A stretch of DNA of 64,000 nucleotides. Origin: an uncultured Pseudomonadota bacterium. GTDB taxonomy: Bacteria > Pseudomonadota > Alphaproteobacteria > JACZXZ01. The stretch lies in assembly GCA_963749075.1 (NCBI GenBank), contig CAVVLJ010000021.1:672001-736000 (forward strand), written 5' to 3'. Below, in pieces: positions 1,560 through 60,510 of this stretch (position 1 is its first letter; every line of letters starts with the position of its first letter). Both the position numbers and the translations under genes were made by a program. The notes beneath the pieces are model-generated. The model saw only the letters and a program-made list of their open reading frames with translations. It did not search any database and was not told where the DNA came from.

Positions 1560-4500
1560 GGCGCTTCAAGCTCAGCCTCTTCGTCAAATACGCCGCCCTC
1601 ATCGTCGGCCTGGTGATCGCCGTGCTGGTGATCAACGGCGCAATCGATCTCTGGTTCACTTATCAGGACAAGAAGCAGGAGCTGGTCGACCTGCAGAAGG
1701 AGAAGGCCGAGGCGGCGGCCCAGCGCATCGAGGAGTTCGTCACCGAGATCGAGCAGCAGGTGGGCTGGACGACCTTCGCGCAGTGGGCGCTGACGCCGGT
1801 CGAGCAGCGCCGCTACGATTACGTGCGCCTCTTGCGCCAGGTGCCGGCGATCACCGAGCTCGTCGAGCTCGACGGCCAGGGCAAGGAGCAGCTCAAGGTC
1901 TCGCGCCTCGCCATGGACGTGGTCGCGAGCGGCGCCGACCACTCGCGCGACGCGAGCTTCACCGAGGCGGTCGCCAAGCGCGTCTATTTCGGCCCGGTCT
2001 ACTTCCGCAAGGAGTCCGAGCCCTACATGACGATGGCACTCGCCGGCAGCGGGCGCAATGCCGGCGTCACCGTGGCCGAGGTCAATCTCAAGCTCATCTG
2101 GGACGTGGTCACGGCGCTCAAGGTCGGCAGGGAGGGCTACGCCTATGTGGTCGATCGCCGCGGCCGGCTCATCGCACACCCGGACATCAGCCTCGTGCTG
2201 CGCGACACCGACCTTGGGTCCCTGCCCCAGGTCGCGGCCGCGCGCGCGGGTGCGGGCGACACCGTGGCACTCGCGCGGAACCTCGCGGGCCGCCAGGTCT
2301 TGAGTGCCAGTGCCGCGATCCCGGAGCTCGGCTGGCACGTCTTCGTCGAGCAGCCGCTCGCCGAGGCCTTCACCCCGCTTTACGCGGCGGCCCTCCGGGG
2401 TGCCGCCATCGTCTGCTTCGGCCTCCTCTTAGCAGGACTCGCCGGGCTCTACCTCTCGCGCCGCATGATCGGGCCGATCCGCACGCTCGAGGCGGGCGCA
2501 CGGCGCATCGGCGGCGGCGAGCTCGCGCACAAGATCGAGATCTCGACCGGCGATGAGCTCGAGGAGCTCGCCGGCCAGTTCAACCGCATGAGCGAGCAGC
2601 TCCAGGAATCCTACGCCGGCCTGGAGCGCAAGGTGGAGGAGCGGACCAGCGAGCTGCAGGAGTCCTTGGCGCAGCAGACGGCGACGGCGGACGTGCTCAA
2701 GGTGATCAGCCGCTCCACCTTCGACCTCGAGCGCGTTCTCGATACGCTCGTAGAAACCGCCGCACGGCTCTGCGCTGCGGACCGCGGCAGCGTCTTTCGG
2801 TTGGAGGGCGATGCTTTTCGGGTGGCGGGGTCCTATGGCCAATCACAGGAATTCATGAGGTTCCTCGAGGAAAATCCCCTCCGCCGGGACCGCGGATCGC
2901 TCGCCGGCAGAACAGTTCTGGAGGGCCGCTTGGTTCACATCGTCGATGTCCTGGCCGACCCCGAGTATATAGTGGCGAACTACGCGAAGCTTGGGGGTTT
3001 CCGGACGGGGCTTGGCGTACCGCTGGTGCGGGAAGGGGTGCCTTTTGGGGCGTTCGTGCTCGTCAGAAAAGAAGTGCGCGCCTTTACCGACAAGGAGATC
3101 GAGCTTATCGCCACCTTTGCCGACCAGGCGGTCATCGCGATCGAGAACGTGCGCCTCATCACCGAAACCCGCGAGGCGCTGGAGCGGCAGACCGCCACGG
3201 CCGAGGTGCTACAGGTCATCAACGCCTCGCCCGGCGACTTGGCGCCGGTCTTCGACGCGATGCTGGAGAAGGCGACGCGAATCTGCGAGGCGGGTTTCGG
3301 CACGCTTTATCTTCGCGAGGGCGAAGCGTTCCGCGCGGTCGCCATGCACGGCGTCTCACCGGCGTTCGCCGAGACCCGGCGTGGCCTCATCCAACCCGGC
3401 CCCAACACCGCCCTGGCACTCGTTGCCCAAACCAAGAGCACGGTTCATATGGAGGACATTCGCACGCAGCAGGCCTATGCGGAGCGCGATCCGATGGCCG
3501 TCGCCAGCGTCGAGCGCGGCGGATTCCGAACGCTCCTCGCTGTGCCGATGCTGAAGGAAAGCGAGCTGATCGGCGTATTTTCCATATACCGCCAAGAAGT
3601 GCGTCCCTTCACCAAGAATCAGATCACGTTGGTCACGACCTTCGCCGACCAGGCGGTCATCGCGATCGAGAACGTGCGCCTCATCACCGAAACCCGCGAG
3701 GCGCTGGAGCGGCAGACCGCCACGGCCGAGGTGCTACAGGTCATCAACGCCTCGCCCGGCGATCTGGCCCCGGTCTTCGAGGCGGTGCTGGAGAAGGCGC
3801 TGCGCCTCTGCGCGGCGTCGTTCGGACACGTCTTTCGCTATGACGGTACGTCCATGCGCCTTGCCGCGAGCCAGGGCATGCAGATCGAGGAGGCCGGCTA
3901 TTTCCGCGAATGGGTGCCCGACGCGGGCAGCGCCGTGGACGAGGTGGTGCGGGGTGCCGCCAAGGTTCACATCGTCGACGTGGTCGATACCGATGCCTAT
4001 CGCTCCGGCATCGTGTCCCGCGTGAAGCTCGTCGAGATTTTCCGCGCCCGCACCGCGCTGTGGGTTGCCTTGCGCAAGGACGAGGCGCTTCTCGGCGTCA
4101 TCGTCATCTACAGACGGGAAGTCCGCGCCTTTACCGACAAGCAGATCGCACTCCTCGAGACCTTCGCCGATCAGGCGGTGATCGCGATCGAGAACGTCCG
4201 CTTGCTCAACGAGCTGCGCGAGCGGAGCGCCGAGCTGGCGCGCTCGGTCGAGGAGCTCGAGACGCTGGGCGAGGTCGGCCAGGCGGTGAGCTCGACGCTC
4301 GATCTCGAGACCGTGCTGACGACGGTCGTGACCCGCGCGGTGGAGATCGCCGAGGCGGATTCCGGGGCGCTCTTCCGTTATAGCCGCGAGCGCCGCGAAT
4401 TCCGTCTCTACCGGGCCGTCGGCTTCGACGCGGCGCTCTTGGCCGAGGCCCGCGCCGTCCGCATCCCGCTCGAGCAGAGCACGCTCGGCCTCGCGGCAAC

Positions 4501-5481
4501 GCGCCGCGCGCCGGTCGAGACAACGTCCTTGGCCGACATGCCGGCGAACGCGATGCGCGATCTCCTGATCGGGGCGGGATTCCACTCGAGCGTGGTGGTG
4601 CCGCTCGTCTATGGCGAGCGCATCCTCGGCGGCTTCACGCTGCAACGCCGGACCGAGAAGCCGTTTCCCGCCAACGTGCTGAGCCTGCTGCTCACGCTCG
4701 CGAACCAATCGGCCATGGCCATCCAGAACGCGCGCCTCTTCCGCGAAATCCAGGAGCAGAGCCGCCAGCTCGAGCTCGCGAGCCAGCACAAATCGCAGTT
4801 CCTCGCCAACATGAGCCACGAGCTGCGCACGCCCCTGAACGCGATCCTCGGCTATACCGAGATGATGGCCGACGGGCTCTACGGCGAGCTCGGCGAGAAG
4901 GCGAAGGGCGTCCTGGAGCGCGTGCAGGCGAACGGCAGGCACCTCCTCGGCCTCATCAACGACGTGCTCGATCTCTCCAAGATCGAGGCCGGGCAGCTCA
5001 AGCTCAGCATCGACAATTACTCGCTGCCCGCCGTCGTGCAGCAGGTGCTGTCCGCGACCGAGTCGCTCGCGCGCAACAAGTCGCTTCAGCTGACCGCGAC
5101 CATCGCGGAGGCCATGCCCGCGGGACGCGGCGACGAGCGGCGGCTGACCCAGGTGCTGCTCAATCTCGTCGGGAACGCGATCAAGTTCACCGACAAAGGC
5201 TCGGTCACGATCCGCGCCTTGGCCGAGGGCGGGCGTTTCGAGATCGCGGTCGTCGACACCGGCCCGGGAATCAAGCCCGAGGACCGCGCGCGCATCTTCG
5301 AGGAGTTCCAGCAGGTCGACGACACCAACACGCGCAAGAAGGGCGGCACCGGGCTCGGCCTCGCCATCTCGCGGCGCATCGTCGAGATGCACGGCGGCCG
5401 CATCGAGGTGGACTCGGCCGTGGGACAGGGCTCCACCTTCCGTGTCATCATCCCCCAACGCGCCGAGGAGGTACTGGCCGC

Positions 5482-45810: not shown

Positions 45811-46122
45811 CGTCACCCCCGCGAAAGCGCTATGGGATGCACACATCTCGAGGAAGCTTGCAGAGCCATCGTGGGTCCTTCGAGACGCGCCCCTTCGGGG
45901 CGCTCCTCAGGATGAGGAAAATTTGTATGTGGCACAAAGACTTAACCTCATCCTGAGGAGCGAGCGCAGCGAGCGTCTCGAAGGACCCGCCGTAGCCGGT
46001 CCGAGGCTCCTTTTGCAAAGCGCAACACCATGATTTGCCGACGGTCTTCGGGCTTGTGTGCATCCCGTAGCGCGCAAGCGGGGGTCCGCGGCCGATGGAT
46101 TCCCGCTTTCGCGGGAATGACG
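45811..46122. mobile_element. Three-layer nested REP / MITE / palindromic element
   Basis: Outer REP (GTCACCCCCGCGAAAGCG...TTCCCGCTTTCGCGGGAATGAC) split by an element with TIRs at 45827-45845 and 46055-46073, which contains a CCTCAGGATGAG/CTCATCCTGAGG palindrome at 45871-45990. Confidence 0.75.
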
Positions 46123-46186: not shown

Positions 46187-47981
46187 ATGAGCATTCGCCG
46201 GCTGCCCTTGAACCTGGTCAACCAGATCGCCGCCGGCGAGGTGGTGGAGCGCCCGGCCGCGGCCTTGAAGGAGCTCATCGAGAACGCCCTCGACGCCGGG
46301 GCTAGCCGCATCGAGGCGGCGCTTCGCGAGGGCGGGCGCACGCTCATCGCGGTCGCGGACGACGGCTCAGGCATGACGGCGGACGAGCTCCTCCTCGCCG
46401 TCGAGCGCCACGCCACCTCGAAGCTCCCCGAGGACGATTTGACGCGCATCGCCACCTTGGGCTTCCGCGGCGAGGCGCTGCCCTCGATCGGCGCCGTCTC
46501 GCGCATGACGATTGCGAGCCGCGCGCGGGGTGCGTCCGACGCCTGGAGCCTCGCGGTCGAGGGCGGCGAGGTCGGCCGGCCGCAGCCGGCAGCGCAACCG
46601 ACGGGCACGCGCGTCGAGGTGCGCGACCTCTTCTACGCGACGCCGGCCAGGCTCAAATTCATGAAGTCCGAGCGCAGCGAGCTCTTGGCCGCCATCGACG
46701 TGGTGAACCGCCTCGCCATGGCGCATCCGGCGGTGGCCTTCGCGCTCTCCGACGGCGCCCGCGCCTCCGTCAAGCTGCAGGCGGCCCAAGGCGATCTCCT
46801 GGACGCGCGGCTCGGGCGGCTCGAAGCGGTGATGGGCCGCGAGTTCGCCGACAATGCGCTGCCAATCGCCGCCGAGCGCGAGGGCATCGGCCTCTCGGGC
46901 TATGCCGGCGTGCCGACGCTCAACCGTGCGACCGCGCAGCACCAGTACCTCTTCGTCAACGGCCGGCCGGTGCGCGACAAGCTCCTCTTCGGCGCCGTGC
47001 GCGGCGCCTACCAGGATTTCCTCGCGCGCGACCGCCACGCCATGCTCGCCCTCTTCCTCGAGCTCGCACCCGAGCTCGTCGACGTGAACGTGCATCCGAG
47101 CAAGGCCGAGGTGCGCTTCCGCGATGCCGGCCTGGTGCGCGGCCTCATCGTGAGTGCCTTGAAGCACGCGCTGGCGGCTGCCGGCCACCGCGCCTCGACC
47201 ACCGTGGCCCACGCCGCGCTCGGCGCCTTCCAGCCGGCGTCGTCACCGGCCTATGGCCGCGGCGCGGGCCACCTGCCGCGCGGCCTCGCCGAGGCGGCGG
47301 CGGCCTATTTCGCACCGGCCGCGGGCGAGGCGTTGCCGGGCCTGGCCGCGGCGCCCGAGGTGCGGCCGCTCGCGGCGGACGCTGGCGAGGACGAGACCGC
47401 CTATCCCTTGGGCGCCCCGCGGGCCCAGCTCCACGGCACCTACATCGTGGCCGAGACGGCCGACGGCATCGTCATCGTCGACCAGCACGCGGCCCACGAG
47501 CGCCTCGTCTACGAGCGCATGAAGCGGGCCCTCGAGGGGCGCGGCGTCGCCCGCCAGCTCCTCCTCATCCCCGAGGTCGTCGAGCTCGACGAGCCCGCGG
47601 CCGAGCGCCTCTCGCGCCGTGCTGCCGAGCTCGCCGAGCTCGGCCTCGTCCTCGAGCCCTTCGGCCCGGGTGCGGTCGTCGTGCGCGAGATGCCGGCGCT
47701 CTTGGGCGAGTGCGACATTGCGAGGCCTCGTGCGCGATCTCGCCGACGAGCTGGCCGAGCTCGGCCAGGCGCTCTCCTTGAAGGAGCGCCTCGAGGAGGT
47801 CTGCGGCACGCTCGCCTGCCACACGAGCGTGCGCGCCGGAAGGCGCTTGGGCCGCGCCGAGATGTCGGCGCTCCTGCGCGAGATGGAGGCCACCCCCCAC
47901 TCCGGCCAGTGCAACCACGGCCGCCCCACCTACGTCGAGCTCAAGCGCGCGGATATCGAGCGGTTGTTCGGGCGGCGCTAA
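46187..47981 (+). CDS. mutL: DNA mismatch repair protein MutL; frameshift near 47723
   Basis: [33 protein letters not shown]; C-terminal ACH..VRAG..CNHGRPT lies in the adjacent frame. Confidence 0.95.
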
Positions 47982-47982
47982 G

Positions 47983-48137
47983 TTCCCCTCTCCTCCTTCA
48001 GGAGGAGAGGGTCAGGGTGAGGAGGTCGCGCTGCAAGGCACGTTGTCGGCCGCAGAAGCGCGCAAGCACCCGGCCTCCTCACCTTCCCATCGCTTCGCGA
48101 TGGGCCCCTTCCTCTCCTCCTGAAGGAGGAGAGGGAA
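47983..48137. repeat. REP-like palindromic element (CCCTCTCCTCCTTCAGGAGGAGAGGG family), copy 1
   Basis: Terminal hairpins in inverted orientation; near-identical to 59914-60069; lies between convergent genes. Confidence 0.85.
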
Positions 48138-48140
48138 TGG

Positions 48141-48740
48141 TTAAGGGCTTGCTTCTGCCGCCTGCCAGCGCAGGAAGAGGAGGCGGGTGCGGCCGTAGTG
48201 GCGCTCGTCGAGTAGGGCGAAGCCCGCGGGGAGGGGAAAGGATTCGCGGCGGTCGAGCTCGACGACGGCGAGCGCTCCGGGCTTGAGCCAGCCGGCCGCG
48301 GCGAGGGCTTGAAGTGCCGCGGGTGCGAGGCCGCTCCTATAGGGCGGGTCGAGGAAGACGAGATCGCGCGGGCCCGGGCCGCCGCGCACCTTCTCGCGCA
48401 ACGGCGGGCGGCAGACGTTGGCCTGGAGGAGGGTGGCGTGCGCCTCCTCGCCGAGCGATTTCAAATTTCGCCGGGCGCATTCGAGCGCGCTCAGGTCGGA
48501 ATCGAGGAACACCACATGGGCAGCACCGTGGGAGAGCGCCTCGAGGCCGAGGGCGCCCGAGCCGGCGCAGGCGTCGAGCACCGCTGCCTCCTCGACGAGC
48601 GGGCCGTCCTCGGCGGCGATGCGGCCTTGGAGGAGGATGTTGAAGAGGCTCTCGCGCACGCGGTCCTGGGTCGGCCGCACCGATTCGTCCTCGGGCGCCG
48701 CGATGGTGCGGCCGCGGTGCCTACCCGCGGTGATGCGCAT
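48141..48740 (-). CDS. rsmD: 16S rRNA m2G966 methyltransferase
   Basis: [40 protein letters not shown]. Confidence 0.95.
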
Positions 48741-50221: not shown

Positions 50222-50402
50222 GGCGGGGAATGTAGGGCGGTTCGGGGGGAAGGGCAATGCGGGGGGGCCTGTGTGTTGTGCCAAGGACGGACATGTACGC
50301 ATCCGTGCCGAGTCACGATCAGCGACTGGAAACGAAACCGGTCGTTGGCCTCGCAAAGCGACTAGAGCCGCCGCCGCGCAGGAGCCCTGACGTGCCCACG
50401 GA

Positions 50403-52862
50403 TCACGGCTTGGCTAGAAGATTGAGGTTTAGCGCACCGCAACCGCATCGCAAGCCTTCCTTCTTCTCCCCTTGTTCGGGAACGACATAGAACATTTCTT
50501 GGCATGTGGAGCAGGTGAACGCCCCGGTGAAGCCTTTGAAGGCGGCCACCACTGGTTCGAAATCCGGCTTCTGTAGGTTCGCCCATGCGTTGAAATGGAC
50601 AGCTGTGTTTATCTGCCATTGCTCATGACCAGTCTTTGTCTTGGCGTCCGCAAAAGCCGCGTCGCGAGTCGCAATCGAACCGACGGCGTCCTTCTGGCCC
50701 CAAGAGTTCGCTGCGGCCTTTGCCCTCTTGAAGAGCTCGCCGAGCGCACGCGTTGCGCTGGGGAGAAGGTCGCCGAGGGTAAACTGGGCATCACCACGAA
50801 ACTCGACGTTGGCACGGAGGCGATCGCAGGTTTCCTTCGCGAAGTGTTCAAGATAGTGTCGTAGGAGGGCGGCTGCTGCGCGAATGTCATTCTTAGCGAG
50901 ATGGGCGTCCAATTCGGCCCAGACATCATGATCATTCCATTCGGTTGGCCCCATGTCGACGTTCCACGTCCTGAAGTGGGCGAAGCTGCGTCCCTTGATC
51001 AAGCCCTCCGACCTCATGTGCTTGAGCCAAATCTCGTCGTGGGTCGTGAAGATGAACTGCGTGCTCGGAAAGTGCTCCTTGAGAAGTGTGCAAACCTGCC
51101 GCCGATGTCCGGTGTCGACCGACATCAGCACGTCGTCCAAGACTGCAAGGGTGAAATTGTCTCCGAGCAGATAGCGCATCAGTGCCAGGTATAGACACAG
51201 ACCCATTCCATCTTGGTGTCCTTCGCTATGGTAGGCACCCGGCGGGAAGTGCCCGCGACCGTAAAAATCCACATCGAACCCCAGCTTGCCGATGGATGGC
51301 ATCAGCCTGGCTGTGAACGTGCTCTCGTCCTCATGGTTCATCTCGCGGTAAAATTCCGAGAAGGTCGCTTCGACATCCTTGTAGATGCCTTCAAGAGCCT
51401 TTGTGGTAACCTGAGCGTATAGATCGAAGACCTTTGATGCGCGTTCGGCGCGCAACTTGCCGATGGCGACCTTCTGCCTGGCCCTACGGTATTGCTCGAG
51501 CCGCTCCTGAGCTACCACCAGAAATTCGCGTGCGGCGTCTTGCTTGGTCGGCTCTGGAATTGCGGCGACGCCGGCCGCCAGCGCCGTGATCGTCGTCGCG
51601 AGATCAGGTGCCTGGTGCGCCGCAAGCAACACGGCGCGAGTATCGTCGAGTGGCAACAGTTTTTGCAGTTGCGCGTAGCGGCCGGCCAGAATGGCCTTGA
51701 AGTCATTTAAGGCGGTGACCTCGACGGGCGGATTGAGCTGAGCGCCGTAGCCGATGACCGTTGCCAGCGCGCTTCCAACCGCATGAATAACATCCATCAA
51801 CGGACCGATCTGTGCTTCCAAGGCTCTTCGTTTTACGGTCACGGCCTCGAAGTGTTTCAGTTTTTCTGCTACGTGCTGTCGGAAAGCATCCGGTTCAAAA
51901 GGCGTGTCGCAGACCGGACAGACCTTGTCATCATAGAAATCGAGCGCGGACCGGAGCAATGCTTCGCGGGATACGGCGTCGAGGCTGTCAGCGTCCTTTG
52001 TGAGTTCGGCCGCTGCGGATGCAGCCGCGACGCATGTCTCTTTAAACGCTTCAGACCGCAGCTTCTCAAGGGCGTCCTTTAGCGTCGTCAAATCGCCCGT
52101 TGCTTGGACCTTTGGAACGCGAGCGGGTGCTGCGCCGGTGGAAGCGGTTGCCAAACCGTCCTTCACGGAGGTTGTCGCATCGAGCACTGTAAAAGCGGGT
52201 AGGCCCAAAAGCTCGCGCTTGGGGTTGACGGCCCCAAGGACGCTGGATTTGGACAATTGGGCGACACCGAGCGCGGCCAGGAGATGTGAAATGGCATCCA
52301 TTTCCGTGCGCTCCAGCGGCGGAAGCTCGCGGGCGCACGCATTAGAAATCTTTTGCAGGACCGTTCGCAGTTTTTCGATATCGTCAAGCCGTAGGAGAGC
52401 CTGCACCTCTTTAGAGCGTTGGCCTGGTTCGGACAGGACGTAACGGATCAACTCACGCCGGGACAAGACGAACTCGGGATGAAGCTTCACATTGTCGAAC
52501 GCGGCCTGGACGTCAACATCATTCGGCGTGATTGTCGGAACGCCCGCTGCTTTGACGGTCCGGTGAATGGTCGCCCTTTTTCCGCCCAGCGACGGGATGA
52601 CGACATCAAGAGTGACGAAGGATCGATCGGGCTTGTTCCGGCTGTCGACGTGCGGACCGTGTGCTTTTACCGAAAGTCCGCCCGTGCCGCTTCCGGACAG
52701 GCGAGAAATGCTCCCAGTCAGCCCAAACTCAATGGCGTCGACGATGCCGCTTTTGCCGGTTCCGTTCGGACCGCATGCGGCAAAGTTCTGGTCTTTGGTA
52801 TCCAGCGTGAGGTCGCGAATACCGCGAAACTCATGTATCCGCAGCTTCTCGATCCGGATCAT
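50403..52862 (-). CDS. Rad50/RloC-like ABC ATPase with zinc hook, HEPN-like C-terminal region and terminal Cys cluster
   Basis: Walker A GPNGTGKS; coiled coil with central CPVC; signature HSEGH; Walker B LAVLDD; FTTHD; tail LLRHYLE...INTAVH, then CSTC...CGC. Confidence 0.85.
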   Translation of the reverse strand: MIRIEKLRIHEFRGIRDLTLDTKDQNFAACGPNGTGKSGIVDAIEFGLTGSISRLSGSGTGGLSVKAHGPHVDSRNKPDRSFVTLDVVIPSLGGKRATIHRTVKAAGVPTITPNDVDVQAAFDNVKLHPEFVLSRRELIRYVLSEPGQRSKEVQALLRLDDIEKLRTVLQKISNACARELPPLERTEMDAISHLLAALGVAQLSKSSVLGAVNPKRELLGLPAFTVLDATTSVKDGLATASTGAAPARVPKVQATGDLTTLKDALEKLRSEAFKETCVAAASAAAELTKDADSLDAVSREALLRSALDFYDDKVCPVCDTPFEPDAFRQHVAEKLKHFEAVTVKRRALEAQIGPLMDVIHAVGSALATVIGYGAQLNPPVEVTALNDFKAILAGRYAQLQKLLPLDDTRAVLLAAHQAPDLATTITALAAGVAAIPEPTKQDAAREFLVVAQERLEQYRRARQKVAIGKLRAERASKVFDLYAQVTTKALEGIYKDVEATFSEFYREMNHEDESTFTARLMPSIGKLGFDVDFYGRGHFPPGAYHSEGHQDGMGLCLYLALMRYLLGDNFTLAVLDDVLMSVDTGHRRQVCTLLKEHFPSTQFIFTTHDEIWLKHMRSEGLIKGRSFAHFRTWNVDMGPTEWNDHDVWAELDAHLAKNDIRAAAALLRHYLEHFAKETCDRLRANVEFRGDAQFTLGDLLPSATRALGELFKRAKAAANSWGQKDAVGSIATRDAAFADAKTKTGHEQWQINTAVHFNAWANLQKPDFEPVVAAFKGFTGAFTCSTCQEMFYVVPEQGEKKEGLRCGCGALNLNLLAKP

Positions 52863-53068
52863 GCCGCGTCCGGAAATAATGCGGCCCGAATTGCCGGCTC
52901 AGCGAAGACGCCATCATCTAGGACCACCTCCCGTAACTTCGGGGCGATGTCTGCAAGCCCTTCCGTTTTCGCGAGCTCGTCGAAGAATTTGGAGAGCACA
53001 GCATGGGCAACGGTTGTCACCGGAGCGGAGCTTTCTTCGGATTCTGATGTCGGCTCGTTTTCCGTCAT
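52859..53068 (-). CDS. Small acidic hypothetical protein coupled to the ATPase
   Basis: AGGAGG RBS, 69 aa, ATGA overlap with the ATPase start. Confidence 0.8.
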   Translation of the reverse strand: MTENEPTSESEESSAPVTTVAHAVLSKFFDELAKTEGLADIAPKLREVVLDDGVFAEPAIRAALFPDAA

Positions 53069-53424
53069 GGCTTTCCTCCTACATGTATTATAAGTTGCGT
53101 GGAGTTGTTCGTCACGCGCGTATTTGGGGAACTACTGGAGCGGGAACCGGCAAGACGGAATTTGTGCGCATCGGCCGCAACAAAGATGGCGCGGTCCGGC
53201 AGGAATCCGGTCTGGCCGATAACCGGTGCGAATACGTCTCGTCGCGCCGCACGCAACAGCACTTTTTGGGCCGGGGACAGCAATGGTCGCTCCTGGCGAC
53301 TTACGGAGGGGCGTGATCGCGGAACGGGGTCCAGAGGGGGTTCGAGCCGGATCAGATCACGACGTTCGGCATCGTGAATTGCTACGTCAGCTAAGTGCCG
53401 ATAGACGCGTCCAAGGAGAAAACA

Positions 53425-53916
53425 ATGATTGAGGTATGTCATAATCTCTTTGTTGGCTCACAGGATGATGAGGTCAGCATTCGTGGCCAAACCGGCTGGT
53501 TCGTTGTTCACGCCTGCAAAGAGCCTTATCACCGGGAAGCGTTGGGTTACAGAGGTCAAGGTGCGCCGAAAGCTCATCCCGAATATCTCGTCGCCCGGCG
53601 CAAAGGTTGCGTGATTCTCAATCTTATCGACGCCGATGATGTCAAATTCATTCCGCCAGAATTAATCGATGCCGCGTTAAGCGACATTCATCAGAACATC
53701 GCATCAAGCAAGGTTCTGGTTCACTGCAACCAAGGCATGTCTCGATCACCGACGATTGCCTTTTTGTATTTGTTGAGATTCTCCGATTTGTTTGATGGGC
53801 AAGATCACCAAAAAGGTTTGCAGAACTTCAAAAGGCTCTATCCGGTCTATGTTCCGAAGCAGGGCATGGCCGATTATGTCAAACTAAACTGGCTCAGATA
53901 TGCGTCTAGAGAATAA
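53425..53916 (+). CDS. Dual-specificity phosphatase (CX5R) family protein
   Basis: AAGGAG RBS; NLFVGS; active-site loop VLVHCNQGMSRS. Confidence 0.9.
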   Translation: MIEVCHNLFVGSQDDEVSIRGQTGWFVVHACKEPYHREALGYRGQGAPKAHPEYLVARRKGCVILNLIDADDVKFIPPELIDAALSDIHQNIASSKVLVHCNQGMSRSPTIAFLYLLRFSDLFDGQDHQKGLQNFKRLYPVYVPKQGMADYVKLNWLRYASRE

Positions 53917-53926
53917 GTGCAGACCC

Positions 53927-54490
53927 TCACCCCGTACGACCGAATTGATAATCCACGCCCGTCATCCGAATTCGCCACTTCAGCATGTCAAGGCTAACGC
54001 CAAAGTGTTGGGCCGCCGTCGAATCAGTCATGCGATTGGCGCGCATCCAGAGCAAGGCAGGCCTGGGCAGTAACATTGTGCCACCAAGCCAATCCGCCTC
54101 TGCCTCCTGCGCTTCGTCGTAATTGCCATTGAGGAAATGGCCATCTGCTGTCCGGCCGGCCGTGGCTAATTCGTGGCCTAGCATGATGTGAGACAGCTCG
54201 TGCATGAGCACGCTGTTAATTCGAGCCGCGGCCAGCTTTGGATTGTAGACCACGAGATAGTGGTCGTCCTCGCGCAGGACGAATGCCGACCATTCGTCGC
54301 TGGCCACTTTGAGTAGATGGTTGCGGTCTTTATCCGGCCAGCCCGGAATTTCGGATGCCGACCAAATGGTGACCCCGAGGTGCACACCTAGACGCCTCGC
54401 GTCTAGTCGCGCGGCCAACTCGATGCCAAGTGTCTTTCTAATCTCCAGCGAGCGGCGTTCACACTGCGCTTTGAACCCGCGCCGAAGCAA
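53927..54490 (-). CDS. ImmA/IrrE-family metallopeptidase (CapP-like)
   Basis: HELSH zinc motif, QEAEADWLGGTMLLPR, C-terminal HTH (AQHFGVS). Confidence 0.9.
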   Translation of the reverse strand: MLRRGFKAQCERRSLEIRKTLGIELAARLDARRLGVHLGVTIWSASEIPGWPDKDRNHLLKVASDEWSAFVLREDDHYLVVYNPKLAAARINSVLMHELSHIMLGHELATAGRTADGHFLNGNYDEAQEAEADWLGGTMLLPRPALLWMRANRMTDSTAAQHFGVSLDMLKWRIRMTGVDYQFGRTG

Positions 54491-54492
54491 TC

Positions 54493-54852
54493 TCAGTGCC
54501 CTTCTGACCCGATCTTCTCGACAAATTTTTTGTGTGCCGCAATGATAAGACTCGCGAGGGACTTCGCCGTCTGGGCGCTGAAAGTACGGCCTTGCTTGAA
54601 GCCGATTTGAACCGCAGGCATTGACGGCGCCTTTACACCGTGGCTACCCGCTCCACCGATTACCAGCGCGGGGTCAATGTTCAGCCACGCGCAAACTTTG
54701 CCCAGCGTTCGACTGTCCGGAAGATGTCCGCGCTCGATTCGAGATAGGGTCGCGGGGCTAGTGCCAATTTCGTGCGCCGCCGCTCTGATGCCCATGCTCC
54801 CGCGCTTCTGGGCCACTTTTTGTCCCAATGCTTCAGGGGAAAGTTGTGCCAT
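54493..54852 (-). CDS. XRE-family HTH repressor (CapH/ImmR-like)
   Basis: IRAAAHEIGTSPATLSRIERGHLPD HTH; directly upstream of the IrrE gene. Confidence 0.9.
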   Translation of the reverse strand: MAQLSPEALGQKVAQKRGSMGIRAAAHEIGTSPATLSRIERGHLPDSRTLGKVCAWLNIDPALVIGGAGSHGVKAPSMPAVQIGFKQGRTFSAQTAKSLASLIIAAHKKFVEKIGSEGH

Positions 54853-54862
54853 GCCGTCTCCT

Positions 54863-54928
54863 GTCTCAGATTGGAAAAAACAGTTTCAATTGTGATACAA
54901 ATGCGCTAGTATGTCTTAAAGCTGAAAC
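54863..54928. promoter_or_regulatory. Three imperfect palindromic boxes (consensus GTYTCA-N4-TGAAAC) in the divergent promoter region
   Basis: GTCTCA-gatt-GGAAAA at 54863, GTTTCA-attg-TGATAC at 54883, GTCTTA-aagc-TGAAAC at 54913. Confidence 0.65.
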
Positions 54929-54997
54929 AGCCACATCGAATCACGGCGATTCGTGGCCGTCAAGCGGAAGTTGGCTCATTGAGAGGATCACGAGGCA

Positions 54998-55423
54998 ATG
55001 GCTGCTAAATCCTATGCCCTGACTTTCAAGGGGTACTACCTAGAGTCCGGTATTGGCGGGCTTCCGGCCGAGTCGGGAATCTATTGCGTGTATGCTTGCA
55101 CCTATGACGCAGCAAAAGATACGGTCAGTCTCCGCCGGCTGATTTACATCGGAGAATCCGATGACGTGCAAGACCGGGTGAAGAACCACGAGAAGTGGTC
55201 CGTTTGGCGCAGAGAGCTGAGGTCGGGCGAGGAACTTTGCTTCAGCTGCGCGCTCATCTCCGGGGAAGACGATCGGCAGCGCGCCGAGGCAGCGGAGATT
55301 TTCGAGCATAAGCCGCCCTGTAATACCGAATATAAACATGAGTTTCCGTTCGATCGAACTACGATCACGAATAGCGGCAAGGCTGCGCTGCTTCACAGCC
55401 ACTTCACGGTTGAGCGGACTTAA
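54998..55423 (+). CDS. Stand-alone GIY-YIG nuclease
   Basis: LPAESGIYCVY ... LIYIGES..VQDRVKNH ... AEAAEI ... PPCN: full GIY/YIG/R/E/N pattern. Confidence 0.88.
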   Translation: MAAKSYALTFKGYYLESGIGGLPAESGIYCVYACTYDAAKDTVSLRRLIYIGESDDVQDRVKNHEKWSVWRRELRSGEELCFSCALISGEDDRQRAEAAEIFEHKPPCNTEYKHEFPFDRTTITNSGKAALLHSHFTVERT

Positions 55424-55489
55424 GCCTGCGCGGCGATGTCCTAGACTGCGTGTGTGCGTTGTCGACGGTTGTAACCAGGAGGTGAGAAG

Positions 55490-55807
55490 ATGTCCGAGAG
55501 TGATACTCATAAGCGGGCGAAATCTCGTGCGGCCGGCGCTGGGGGTCAGACGGAGGTGCCGTTGACGGGTGGCCGCCGGCTGGACGCGTTGTCGGATGCC
55601 GGGCGCGCGACAGAGGTCGAGCGGAGCGGCAACATGAACAGTCTCAAGGCGGCTGCCCGGCGTCTTCGGGATGCACCCGGGAATCAGAGGGTGTTGCAGG
55701 TGCCTCAGCAAGACATGGACAAAGCTGCTGCGGCGATGAGGCAGATTGAAGTCGCCGGAACCGTGAAAAATTTGATCGGGACGAAGCGCCGCAGCATTCG
55801 GCCTTAA
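55490..55807 (+). CDS. Small basic hypothetical protein, possibly a minimal PD-(D/E)xK nuclease fold
   Basis: AGGAGG RBS; H..AK..., TEVPLTGGRRLDA, ATEVERSG spacing resembles E...(P)D...ExE. Confidence 0.65.
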   Translation: MSESDTHKRAKSRAAGAGGQTEVPLTGGRRLDALSDAGRATEVERSGNMNSLKAAARRLRDAPGNQRVLQVPQQDMDKAAAAMRQIEVAGTVKNLIGTKRRSIRP

Positions 55808-56118
55808 TTGCAATCGCCGAGCATGCGTCGGAGGCCTGTCGCTGCTGGAGAGGTTCCCTTTTTGCGGCTGAAAGCGCTGAACTTGCCGATCTCCGGGATT
55901 GGGATGATACTGCTTCGGGCCCGATGGCCCGCTGCGGATCATTGCCGCCCACCGACCCCATGAAACCGATATCCGGAGCCGTTACTCGAGTCATACGGCT
56001 ATAGTGCCAGCCACCAGCCTTGTTCGTTCACCTGCGTCGCGGCATGCCGCCCGCCCTCGCGCCCACCCACCCCCTCCCCGCTTGACGGCCCACCCCCTCT
56101 CCCGCCAACCTTCCCCCC

Positions 56119-57500: not shown

Positions 57501-57540
57501 CGGCTGTCGCGCTGCGCGAGGGTGCCTCGGACTGAGCGCG

Positions 57541-57750
57541 GTGGGTCCTTCGAGACGCTCGCTCCCGCTCGCTCCTCAGGATGAGATAAAGTCTTTCTGC
57601 CACACACAATTTTTCCTCGTCCTGAGGAGCGCCCCGCGGGGCGTAGGCCCGCTCTCTTGCGTCACGCAAGAGAGGCGCGCTTAGCGCGCCGGGGGCGCGT
57701 CTCGAAGGACCACGGTGGCACTGCAAGCCTCCTCGATATCTGTGCATCTA
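57541..57750. repeat. Inverted copy of the 45834-45990 element, with an extra ~50-bp double hairpin inserted
   Basis: Matches the reverse complement of 45834-45990 including the spacer; insertion contains CTCTCTTGCG-TCA-CGCAAGAGAG and GGCGCGC-TTA-GCGCGCC. Confidence 0.8.
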
Positions 57751-59891: not shown

Positions 59892-59913
59892 TAGCGCTTG
59901 ATCGCGGGGCCGA

Positions 59914-60069
59914 TTTCCCTCTCCTCCTTCAGGAGGAGAGGGTCAGGGTGAGGAGGCGATTGGGCCGATCACGTCGGACGCCAGCGTGCGCTTGTTGCGG
60001 TGGCCCTCCTCACCCTCCCATCGCTTCGCGATGGGCCCGGCCCTCTCCTCCTGAAGGAGGAGAGGGAAA
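59914..60069. repeat. REP-like palindromic element, copy 2
   Basis: Same arms as 47983-48137, with a different central spacer. Confidence 0.85.
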
Positions 60070-60081
60070 TCGGCCGCGCGC

Positions 60082-60510
60082 TCACCCCTCGGGCGGGCCT
60101 TTGAGCTCGATCTGGTTGCCTTCGGGGTCGAGGAGATAGAGGGAGGGGCCCTCTCCGTCGGCGCCGTAGCGGCTGGCGGCCTCGCCGGCAGCTATGCCGT
60201 GGGCCGCGAGGTGGCGGCGGATGGCGGCCTCGTCCCAGGGCTCGACGCGCAGGCAGAAATGCTCGAGGTTGCGCGCCTCCTTCCCGGGTGCCGCGCCGCC
60301 CGCCTTGCCGATCGGCCCTGCCACGTCGGCCAAGTCGATCAGGCTCGCGCCGGCGCGCAGCTGGACGAGGCCGATCGCCGGCTGGCGCTTCTCGACCGTG
60401 CAGCCGAGCACCTCGCAATAGAAGCGCACGCCCGCCTCCACGTCGCGGTAGCGCAGCACGACATGGTCGAGGCGATGAAGCGCAAAGGGAAGGGTGGTGC
60501 TTATCGGCAC
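60082..60510 (-). CDS. VOC/glyoxalase family protein
   Basis: LDHVVLR, FYCEVLG, HFCLRV, YLLDPEGNQIELK. Confidence 0.9.
   Translation of the reverse strand: MPISTTLPFALHRLDHVVLRYRDVEAGVRFYCEVLGCTVEKRQPAIGLVQLRAGASLIDLADVAGPIGKAGGAAPGKEARNLEHFCLRVEPWDEAAIRRHLAAHGIAAGEAASRYGADGEGPSLYLLDPEGNQIELKGPPEG

Follow-up and report, generated by a model that had tools for sequence, protein, structure and literature searches.

What kind of system is encoded by two overlapping genes at positions 50403..53068 of a 64,000-nucleotide (nt) stretch of DNA from an uncultured Pseudomonadota bacterium (contig CAVVLJ010000021.1; this whole stretch is referred to below as the window)? An earlier note, made from the letters alone, had proposed a two-gene sensor-effector, in which a Rad50/RloC-like ATPase ends in a variant ribonuclease (RNase) site and is accompanied by a small protein encoded upstream. 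The two-gene unit of the small open reading frame (ORF) and the ATPase is real. We conclude that the ATPase would work like RloC, of which it is probably a distant relative, and the reading that we favour, with confidence a little better than even, is a self-contained, horizontally mobile two-gene defence module working like RloC/PrrC. The two-gene part of the earlier proposal stood, whereas for its RNase part no HEPN or RloC sequence model was found to match the tail of the protein.

The ORF list of the window and the signals around the two genes gave the following cassette (aa, amino acids; ABC, ATP-binding cassette):

50403..52862, stop codon included, minus strand: 819-aa Rad50/SMC-type ABC ATPase with a zinc hook and a C-terminal effector-like tail (Pfam matches).
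52859..53068, minus strand: gene of the 69-aa acidic partner (ORF, AGGAGG and a homologue upstream of the ATPase elsewhere).
53087..53115, minus strand: sigma-70-like promoter GTGACG-17 nt-TATAAT, 10 of 12 consensus positions (consensus match only).

The TGA stop codon of the 69-aa ORF overlaps the ATPase start codon in the sequence ATGA at 52859..52862, and the small product carries 14 Asp and Glu versus 5 Lys and Arg, in agreement with the earlier description of a small acidic ORF coupled upstream. An AGGAGG ribosome-binding site is located 6 nt before the ATG of the small gene (53068), with the promoter-like site ~20 nt farther upstream. The small gene and the ATPase gene are shown to carry predicted co-transcription signals and the arrangement of translational coupling. 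A 125-aa ORF at 53065..53442 (minus strand) was considered as a third gene and treated as spurious because it spans the promoter-like and ribosome-binding sites of the cassette and has no family; nothing similar was found beside the homologues.

Conservation of the small ORF beside homologues, named as a check in the earlier note, held for all 73 genome loci that could be assessed and for all 7 plasmid loci inspected. The genome loci came from a pattern scan of one genome per species, which gave 896 matched stretches, 853 of them encoding a relative in the alignment-based scan; 80 loci were kept, and the 7 in which the match lacked the N-terminus or upstream DNA were dropped from the partner test. 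A hidden Markov model (HMM) of 55 clear partners matched the upstream 500 nt in all 73 loci, including 18 outside its training set. The stop codon of the upstream ORF overlapped the ATPase start by exactly 4 nt at 62 of the 72 loci with the ATPase N-terminus and upstream DNA present. Among plasmids, 31 records matched (7 of them conjugative), and each of the 7 records inspected had a coding sequence of 53-69 aa directly upstream with a 4-14-nt overlap with the ATPase start; two of these were haloarchaeal, with an ATPase identity of 25-28%. Within the class of the window's organism, the partner profile found the same three of 401 genomes as the ATPase, each partner being directly upstream. Judged from these comparisons, the partner is obligatory for the family.

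Among 55 members of the partner family, the median length is 66 residues and the median net charge -6. An alignment of 56 sequences displayed a variable N-terminus and a conserved, helical-looking core of ~45 residues, with F28, L32, and L45 conserved in at least 90%. No relative of the partner was detected in Pfam, PADLOC, NCBIfam or PDB: the Pfam scan of the 56 partners gave nothing consistent, the sequence-profile search of PDB returned designed helical repeats only, and the ESM Atlas neighbours were unnamed clusters only. No partner-ATPase fusion was found, the search for longer partner-containing proteins giving one protein of 139 aa (weak evidence).

The motifs of the ATPase part are as follows:

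52749..52772, minus strand: Walker A GPNGTGKS, residues 31-38 (G31, N33, G34, G36, K37, and S38 invariant).
51453..52292, minus strand: variable insert between the head halves, ~residues 191-470 (split SMC_N match; poorly conserved except for the hook).
51909..51920, minus strand: zinc hook CPVC, residues 315-318 (C315, P316, and C318 invariant in 60 sequences).
51210..51230, minus strand: variant ABC signature HSEGHQD, residues 545-551 (all seven residues invariant).
51114..51149, minus strand: Walker B/D-loop LAVLDDVLMSVD, residues 572-583 (Asp-Asp as in RloC IDDPISSLD).
51036..51047, minus strand: H-loop TTHD, residues 606-609 (T606, T607, H608, and D609 invariant).

All motifs listed in the earlier note, namely the ABC motifs, the HSEGH signature, the CPVC hook, LLRHYLE, WQINTAVH, and CSTC...CGC, were located by script at the places claimed. 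Pfam assigned SMC_N (5.5e-15) over residues 4-617 and AAA_23 (2.1e-11), with a weak Rad50_zn_hook match (7.8e-4) below the cut-off. By analogy with Rad50 and RloC, the insert is presumed to be an antiparallel coiled coil. The best PADLOC hit was LmuB (6.5e-17), over residues 259-618 only, with mad3, PtuA, and GajA close behind; many of the PtuA and GajA matches were confined to the P-loop region. The NCBIfam Rad50, SbcC, and SMC models reached 12-25 bits versus cut-offs of 478-1087 (e.g., sbcc, 16.6 versus 478.5), the RecF and RecN models were also far below their cut-offs, and the top PDB sequence matches were Rad50 heads (1.4e-7). From these Pfam, NCBIfam, PADLOC, and PDB results, the 819-aa protein is therefore classified, by sequence, as a Rad50-like coiled-coil ABC ATPase outside every curated family.

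A word-indexed protein search, in which 8000 candidates were scored, gave 1364 relatives at E<=0.001. Among the 120 matches listed, identity ranged from 61 to 100% and length from 749 to 835 aa; the source names of relatives were generic (AAA ATPase, SMC, RecF), and the family is missed by PADLOC 2.0, Pfam, and NCBIfam. A scan of genome contigs with the single ATPase protein alone gave no relatives; the alignment-based scan succeeded. The family spans many bacterial phyla and haloarchaeal plasmids, and the ATPase was present in none of the two same-genus genomes; neither the ATPase nor the partner matched any of 50,697 phage records. Conservation was assessed on an alignment of 60 full-length homologues with 29-84% identity. 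The heads and the tail were well conserved and the central insert was variable apart from the hook. C315, P316, C318, HSEGHQD, R668, E672, N752, H756, C787, C806, and C808 were invariant, as were D576 and D577 of Walker B; W749 and C784 were conserved in at least 90%.

Some copies of the ATPase gene are interrupted. In a Minwuia metagenome-assembled genome (L031 6100-7150; the same in G100: L009, L011), a ~1-kb insertion interrupts the ATPase after residue ~368; it carries two opposite-strand ORFs of 147 and 218 aa, which we take to be an IS630-type transposase from their appearance. The ATPase frame ends early in 3 of the 71 loci checked (L015, L028, and L037, after 129, 271, and 705 codons, respectively), and these early stops may represent pseudogenes or sequencing errors.

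The tail, which distinguishes the protein from a plain Rad50-like head, contains these features:

50406..51008, minus strand: tail domain, residues 619-819, with a beta-hairpin, a helical domain, and a C-terminal zinc ribbon (AlphaFold2 model).
50847..50861, minus strand: R668-x3-E672 in the second tail helix, within LLRHYLE 666-672 (invariant; aligned to the Arg and Glu of RloC).
50595..50618, minus strand: W749-x2-N752-x3-H756 at the distorted end of the long third helix, WQINTAVH 749-756 (invariant in 69 tails).
50439..50513, minus strand: zinc ribbon C784-x2-C787 ... C806-x-C808, CSTC 784-787 and CGC 806-808 (Cys conserved; modelled as three short strands).

An exhaustive search with the tail only gave 689 cluster representatives (50% identity clusters) at E<=0.001 and 517 at E<=1e-10. 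Among the 150 tail matches listed, the tail was C-terminal, mostly in proteins of 800-850 aa; ~50 rows were shorter and are presumed to be fragments. In 69 tail-only sequences, W131, N134, H138, R50, E54, and all four Cys were invariant (tail numbering; adding 618 gives the protein numbering). The word degenerate, applied to the tail in the earlier note, is wrong, as the variant site is strictly conserved across homologues. The apparent RHYLEH (668-673) is not a conserved Rx4H motif because H673 varies (H/Y/F/W).

The AlphaFold2 model of the tail, built with an alignment of 56 sequences, reached a mean local confidence (pLDDT) of 89 and a predicted template-modelling score (pTM) of 0.82. It consists of a beta-hairpin (tail residues 12-23), helices 26-38, 42-63, 78-102, 106-126, 128-133, 135-143, and 147-162, and a three-stranded zinc ribbon; helix 42-63 carries R50 and E54, and N134 and H138 lie with helix 135-143. 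In a HEPN layout, helix 2 bears a conserved acidic residue, helices 2 and 3 are often separated by an insert, and the catalytic His is placed where helix 3 ends in a distortion; some HEPN families lacking the motif Arg use other basic residues (PMC3710099). The secondary structure of the tail model can be read as such a layout. The acidic helix-2 residue is present as the invariant E672 (tail residue 54) on helix 42-63. In a structure search against 48,161 chains, 6 of the top 20 were titled HEPN (2hsb, 4nqf, 3o10, 1wol, 9bj5, and 7ae2), all with weak Z scores; 1wwp and 1ylm, also in the top 20, are called HEPN in PMC3710099. In the ESM Atlas, the only neighbour of the tail with a family assignment was a cluster with 29% PF13166 (score 0.82), which serves as a lead only.

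Comparison with RloC itself was based on 20 AAA_13 proteins found in 401 phylum genomes (PF13166, E<=1e-40), of which 17 were aligned; one truncated copy, one partial match, and one protein without the motif were left out. Twenty of the 401 phylum genomes have such a match, and the window's genome has none at this threshold. The RloC set has the IDDPISSLD Walker B/D-loop and, in 16 of 17 members, CPFC-type hooks at residues 255-301. The full-length profile of the window family matched the 17 RloC proteins with 98.7% probability and an E-value of 2.3e-16 (columns 451-678 versus 433-686). The alignment path was unbroken from the end of the coiled coil through the signature, Walker B, the H-loop, a shared beta region, and a W-containing helix to R668 and E672, which fall on the Arg and Glu of RloC; HSEGHQD aligned to LSEGEKT of RloC. 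The RloC tails read N-x-x-R-[RK]-x-L-E and [RK/S]-x-[IV]-N-x-x-S-H, and those of the window family R-x-Y-L-E and W-x-x-N-x-x-V-H. Real RloC tails often have R or K seven residues before the His, where the window family has an invariant W, so that the earlier remark about a Trp at the expected Arg was borne out.

To look at the genomic company of the cassette, 2135 flanking ORFs from 74 loci were clustered into families. There was no third conserved gene: the commonest non-partner neighbour family occurred in 6 of the 74 loci and the second commonest in 5. Both resemble DNA methyltransferases, one being confirmed as N6_N4_Mtase. Nor was an SbcD/Mre11 gene present among the 8 ORFs scanned in the island that holds the cassette, as the earlier note had stated. 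Several loci place the pair within restriction-modification (R-M) or BREX operons. On the Halorhabdus plasmid pHTIA, pglX, the small gene, the ATPase gene, and pglZ lie head-to-tail inside a BREX-5 operon, and a Patescibacteria genome (L056) has the order hsdR-hsdM-small-ATPase-hsdS with a 4-nt overlap at both small-gene junctions. Two loci (L047, L083) have type III mod, res, the small gene, and the ATPase gene, and in two others (L085, L091) the gene nearest on the upstream side encodes ResIII. Among the other nearest neighbours are genes for an AlwI restriction endonuclease (REase), a DUF4011/MTES_1575 helicase-REase, SIR2_2, a caspase, BrxL, DUF1156, a C5 methylase, DUF262, and HipA; in Halobacterium, DUF499/DUF1156 are the neighbours. 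Genes of mobile elements are common around the cassette, including those for type IV secretion system (T4SS) coupling proteins, integrases, serine recombinases, and RecT. RloC-family HEPN genes have been described inside Pgl operons (PMC3710099). In two loci (L012 1195-4770, L031 1200-4778), a gene for an AAA_27 ATPase of ~1190 aa was noted directly upstream, with a T4SS coupling protein encoded after the cassette.

In the window, the cassette is part of a low-GC island:

50400..56100, no strand: low-GC island with the cassette (GC 48-64% versus 69-76% in the flanks; 5.7 kb).

The island is flanked by a gene for a Peptidase_C26 amidotransferase and a tadA-like deaminase gene. These flanks are 5.9 kb apart in the window, ~125 nt apart in a same-genus genome, ~281 nt in a same-family genome, and ~1.6 kb in a second same-genus genome; because the flanks nearly adjoin in relatives, the island is regarded as an insertion. 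In the second same-genus genome (L116/L118; G283:C202, ~3027-4616), the insertion site holds other DNA (~1.6 kb) in which no gene is evident, and the site may be a variable hotspot. No tRNA gene and no convincing flanking direct repeats were found at the island ends, and no integrase inside. The island also encodes a DSP-like phosphatase (53395-53916, plus strand; DSPc 5e-7, below the cut-off), an ImmA/IrrE M78 peptidase (53927-54490, minus strand) with an XRE helix-turn-helix partner (54493-54852, minus strand), and a weak GIY-YIG-like ORF (54998-55423, plus strand); none of these recurs beside the cassette homologues.

Elsewhere in the window, mutL looks frameshifted. The 699-aa ORF at 46187-48286 (plus strand) begins as MutL, its last ~190 residues are Arg/Pro-rich and out of frame, and a typical MutL C-terminus is read in another frame in an ORF from 47619 (47619-47981, plus strand); the cause may be a true mutator allele or an error in the assembly. 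A palindromic intergenic repeat is present in two direct copies, 94-98% identical (47983-48149 and 59899-60084), and a ~120-nt repeat in inverted copies, 84-89% complementary (45891-46010 and 57521-57641). Both dispersed repeat families lie outside the island and not at its borders.

How would a defence module of the RloC/PrrC kind operate here? By analogy with Rad50 and RloC, the ATPase would dimerise through the CPxC zinc hook and the ABC heads and would sense DNA ends, foreign DNA, or the failure of a neighbouring restriction/BREX system. ATP-driven head movement would then bring together two C-terminal helical domains, which may be HEPN-like and probably share a distant ancestry with the anticodon-nuclease domain of RloC/PrrC. 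The putative site formed by R668, E672, N752, and H756, predicted from residue conservation, would cut tRNA or other RNA without metal. The probable targets, to judge from RloC (PMC2610378 and PMC3458546), would be tRNA anticodon loops. Such cutting would stop translation and abort infection. The small acidic partner may bind the ATPase and either hold it silent or couple it to the trigger, as LmuC or the R-M enzyme that masks PrrC might suggest, and the terminal zinc ribbon could, speculatively, help to bind nucleic acid or to pair the nuclease domains.

In favour of this reading are the architecture shared with RloC, the profile alignment, the similar tail motifs, the HEPN-compatible layout of the tail model together with the HEPN entries among its structural neighbours, the constant presence of the partner, the R-M and BREX contexts, and the mobile, patchy distribution. 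The PrrC/RloC-style site claimed earlier is indirectly supported by the invariant R-x3-E and N-x-x-V-H and by the RloC alignment through the R-x3-E helix. Several results weigh against the defence reading. Neither Pfam nor PADLOC gave a HEPN, RloC or PrrC match to the tail. On the 69 tails, these two collections produced scattered zinc-ribbon or chance matches only, and the PDB sequence-profile search with the same tails nothing meaningful. AAA_13 (PF13166) was not among the 8 Pfam families matched at E<=0.1. The profile of the tail only, compared with the RloC tails, gave a non-significant result (E 0.077, probability 0.7%), its single match being the R-x3-E helix. The Foldseek search of the tail model, proposed earlier as a check for a HEPN fold, returned nothing at E<=0.001 in PDB or BFVD, and local pLDDT was only 59 around the N..H motif. 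Instead of the HEPN Rx4-6H motif, the family has W749-x6-H756 with N752, an invariant Trp occupying the Arg position. The RloC triad is given as Arg-X3-Glu-X36-52-His in PMC2610378, and the Glu-to-His spacing of 83 here falls outside that range of 36-52; on our reading of the model, the extra residues between Glu and His may form an inserted helix. Finally, an R-M or BREX gene was nearest in only ~10 of ~70 loci, and the linkage is therefore described as recurrent, not universal.

A bolder version of the defence reading can be offered only tentatively. It portrays a pan-prokaryotic two-component immune module, a 'Lamassu-RloC hybrid', found from bacteria of the Candidate Phyla Radiation (CPR) to haloarchaea, that would stand behind type I, type III, and BREX systems as a second layer of defence. 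It would join a Rad50-like zinc-hook sensor to a Trp-variant HEPN-type RNase with a zinc ribbon, and an obligatory acidic lock of ~65 residues, belonging to a new fold family, would occupy this sensor and be displaced by phage DNA ends or anti-restriction factors.

A different mechanism, to which we assign a rather low probability, is DNA-directed immunity of the Lamassu/Wadjet type, with the tail as a non-catalytic zinc-binding domain for DNA or protein recognition, the partner as an LmuC-like subunit, and a nuclease acting in trans. The best PADLOC hit, LmuB, points in this direction, and the preprint 10.1101/2025.03.14.643221 describes a Rad50-like zinc-hook LmuB and a small LmuC that contacts the hook region and a head. 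The zinc ribbon of the tail and the lack of a HEPN sequence-model match to it would also fit. The LmuB match, however, does not cover the tail, in whose helical domain four polar residues that never vary resemble an active site. Moreover, no LmuA-like or other third gene is conserved, the top neighbour family being that seen in 6 of 74 loci, and the Walker B reads DD as in RloC, versus the Glu-to-Gln change of LmuB reported in the same preprint.

Equally improbable in our view is a toxin-antitoxin (addiction) pair, in which the small protein would be a labile antitoxin, the ATPase-RNase the toxin, and the outcome the stabilisation of plasmids or islands. The antitoxin-first gene order with translational coupling, the inactivated copies, and the frequent location on plasmids (the 31 records, 7 conjugative, mentioned above) beside T4SS genes and recombinases would all be expected of such a pair. 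The partner, however, has no recognisable DNA-binding or known antitoxin fold, an 819-aa zinc-hook regulated ATPase is far more elaborate than typical type II toxins, and some R-M and BREX operons have the pair tightly integrated among their genes. The addiction and defence readings are not mutually exclusive.

A housekeeping Rad50/SbcC-type DNA repair ATPase, suggested by names that relatives carry in their sources ('recombinational DNA repair ATPase RecF', 'chromosome segregation protein SMC') and by the Rad50 heads among the PDB matches, is very improbable and already contradicted by distribution and context, as the NCBIfam Rad50, SbcC, SMC, RecF, and RecN scores are far below cut-offs, no Mre11/SbcD partner was found beside the ATPase, the gene is confined to 3 of the 401 class genomes and to neither same-genus genome, and it sits in a low-GC insertion.

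PrrC and RloC form the classic 'second line' of anti-phage defence and, to our knowledge, are the only ABC-ATPase-plus-HEPN nucleases that have been studied. ABC ATPases that carry a fused HEPN-type RNase and back up restriction are a known class; what appears new here, by sequence, is the Trp-variant site, the enlarged putative nuclease domain with a zinc ribbon, and the obligatory small partner. A literature search found no description of the family, the Krishnan et al. 2020 classification of ABC ATPases and the supplements of the HEPN/BREX papers being outside its scope, so that an earlier listing is possible. If the proposed model is true, the cassette would provide a simple two-gene system in which to study the gating of an RNase by a Rad50-like switch, would add a new small regulator fold, and would account for unannotated genes inside type I, type III, and BREX operons. 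The defence annotation of soil, rhizobial, and CPR genomes would also improve.

Among known systems, Rad50-Mre11/SbcCD shares the ABC head, the coiled coil, and the CPxC hook with the window protein, which differs in having no nuclease partner, a much shorter coiled coil, an extra tail, and an accessory distribution. The APECO1_4465 and ERFG_01251 families, as described in PMC3710099, are also ABC ATPases that end in a HEPN RNase, and they are encoded on mobile islands. Lamassu has a Rad50-like zinc-hook sensor and a small single-domain accessory as well, and its LmuB was the best PADLOC hit; there, however, the effector is encoded by a separate LmuA gene, whereas here it is fused to the sensor, and the Walker B DD contrasts with the Glu-to-Gln reported for LmuB (10.1101/2025.03.14.643221). 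The partner, at ~60-70 residues, showed no detectable relation to LmuC, LmuC profiles not being among those compared.

PrrC, an anticodon nuclease, is likewise an ABC ATPase with a C-terminal R/E/H nuclease domain (putative in the window protein). In at least one genome (L056), the pair is part of a type I R-M operon, an arrangement reminiscent of PrrC, which its R-M enzyme keeps silent. PrrC differs in lacking the coiled-coil/zinc-hook insert and a small partner, and in residing at the type Ic prr R-M locus, whereas most loci of the window family are not R-M linked.

The closest comparison is that with RloC, a Rad50-like anticodon nuclease that excises the wobble nucleotide, which is described as an ABC head with a CxxC hook in a long insert and a helical tail of ~200 aa (PMC2610378 and PMC3458546). 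The window protein is not filed as an RloC member because it fails the AAA_13 sequence model. Its family differs in the HSEGHQD signature, the invariant Trp where RloC often has Arg/Lys, the terminal zinc ribbon, and the small upstream partner, obligatory here and present beside none of the 17 RloC genes. In common with RloC are the size of ~720-800 aa, the ABC head with an Asp-Asp Walker B, the CxxC zinc hook in a long insert, and the C-terminal helical domain with R-x-x-L-E and N-x-x-[S/V]-H, in which Asn four residues before His is common. Both families are also sporadic and mobile and are sometimes found beside R-M or Pgl genes (PMC2610378 and PMC3710099, for RloC).

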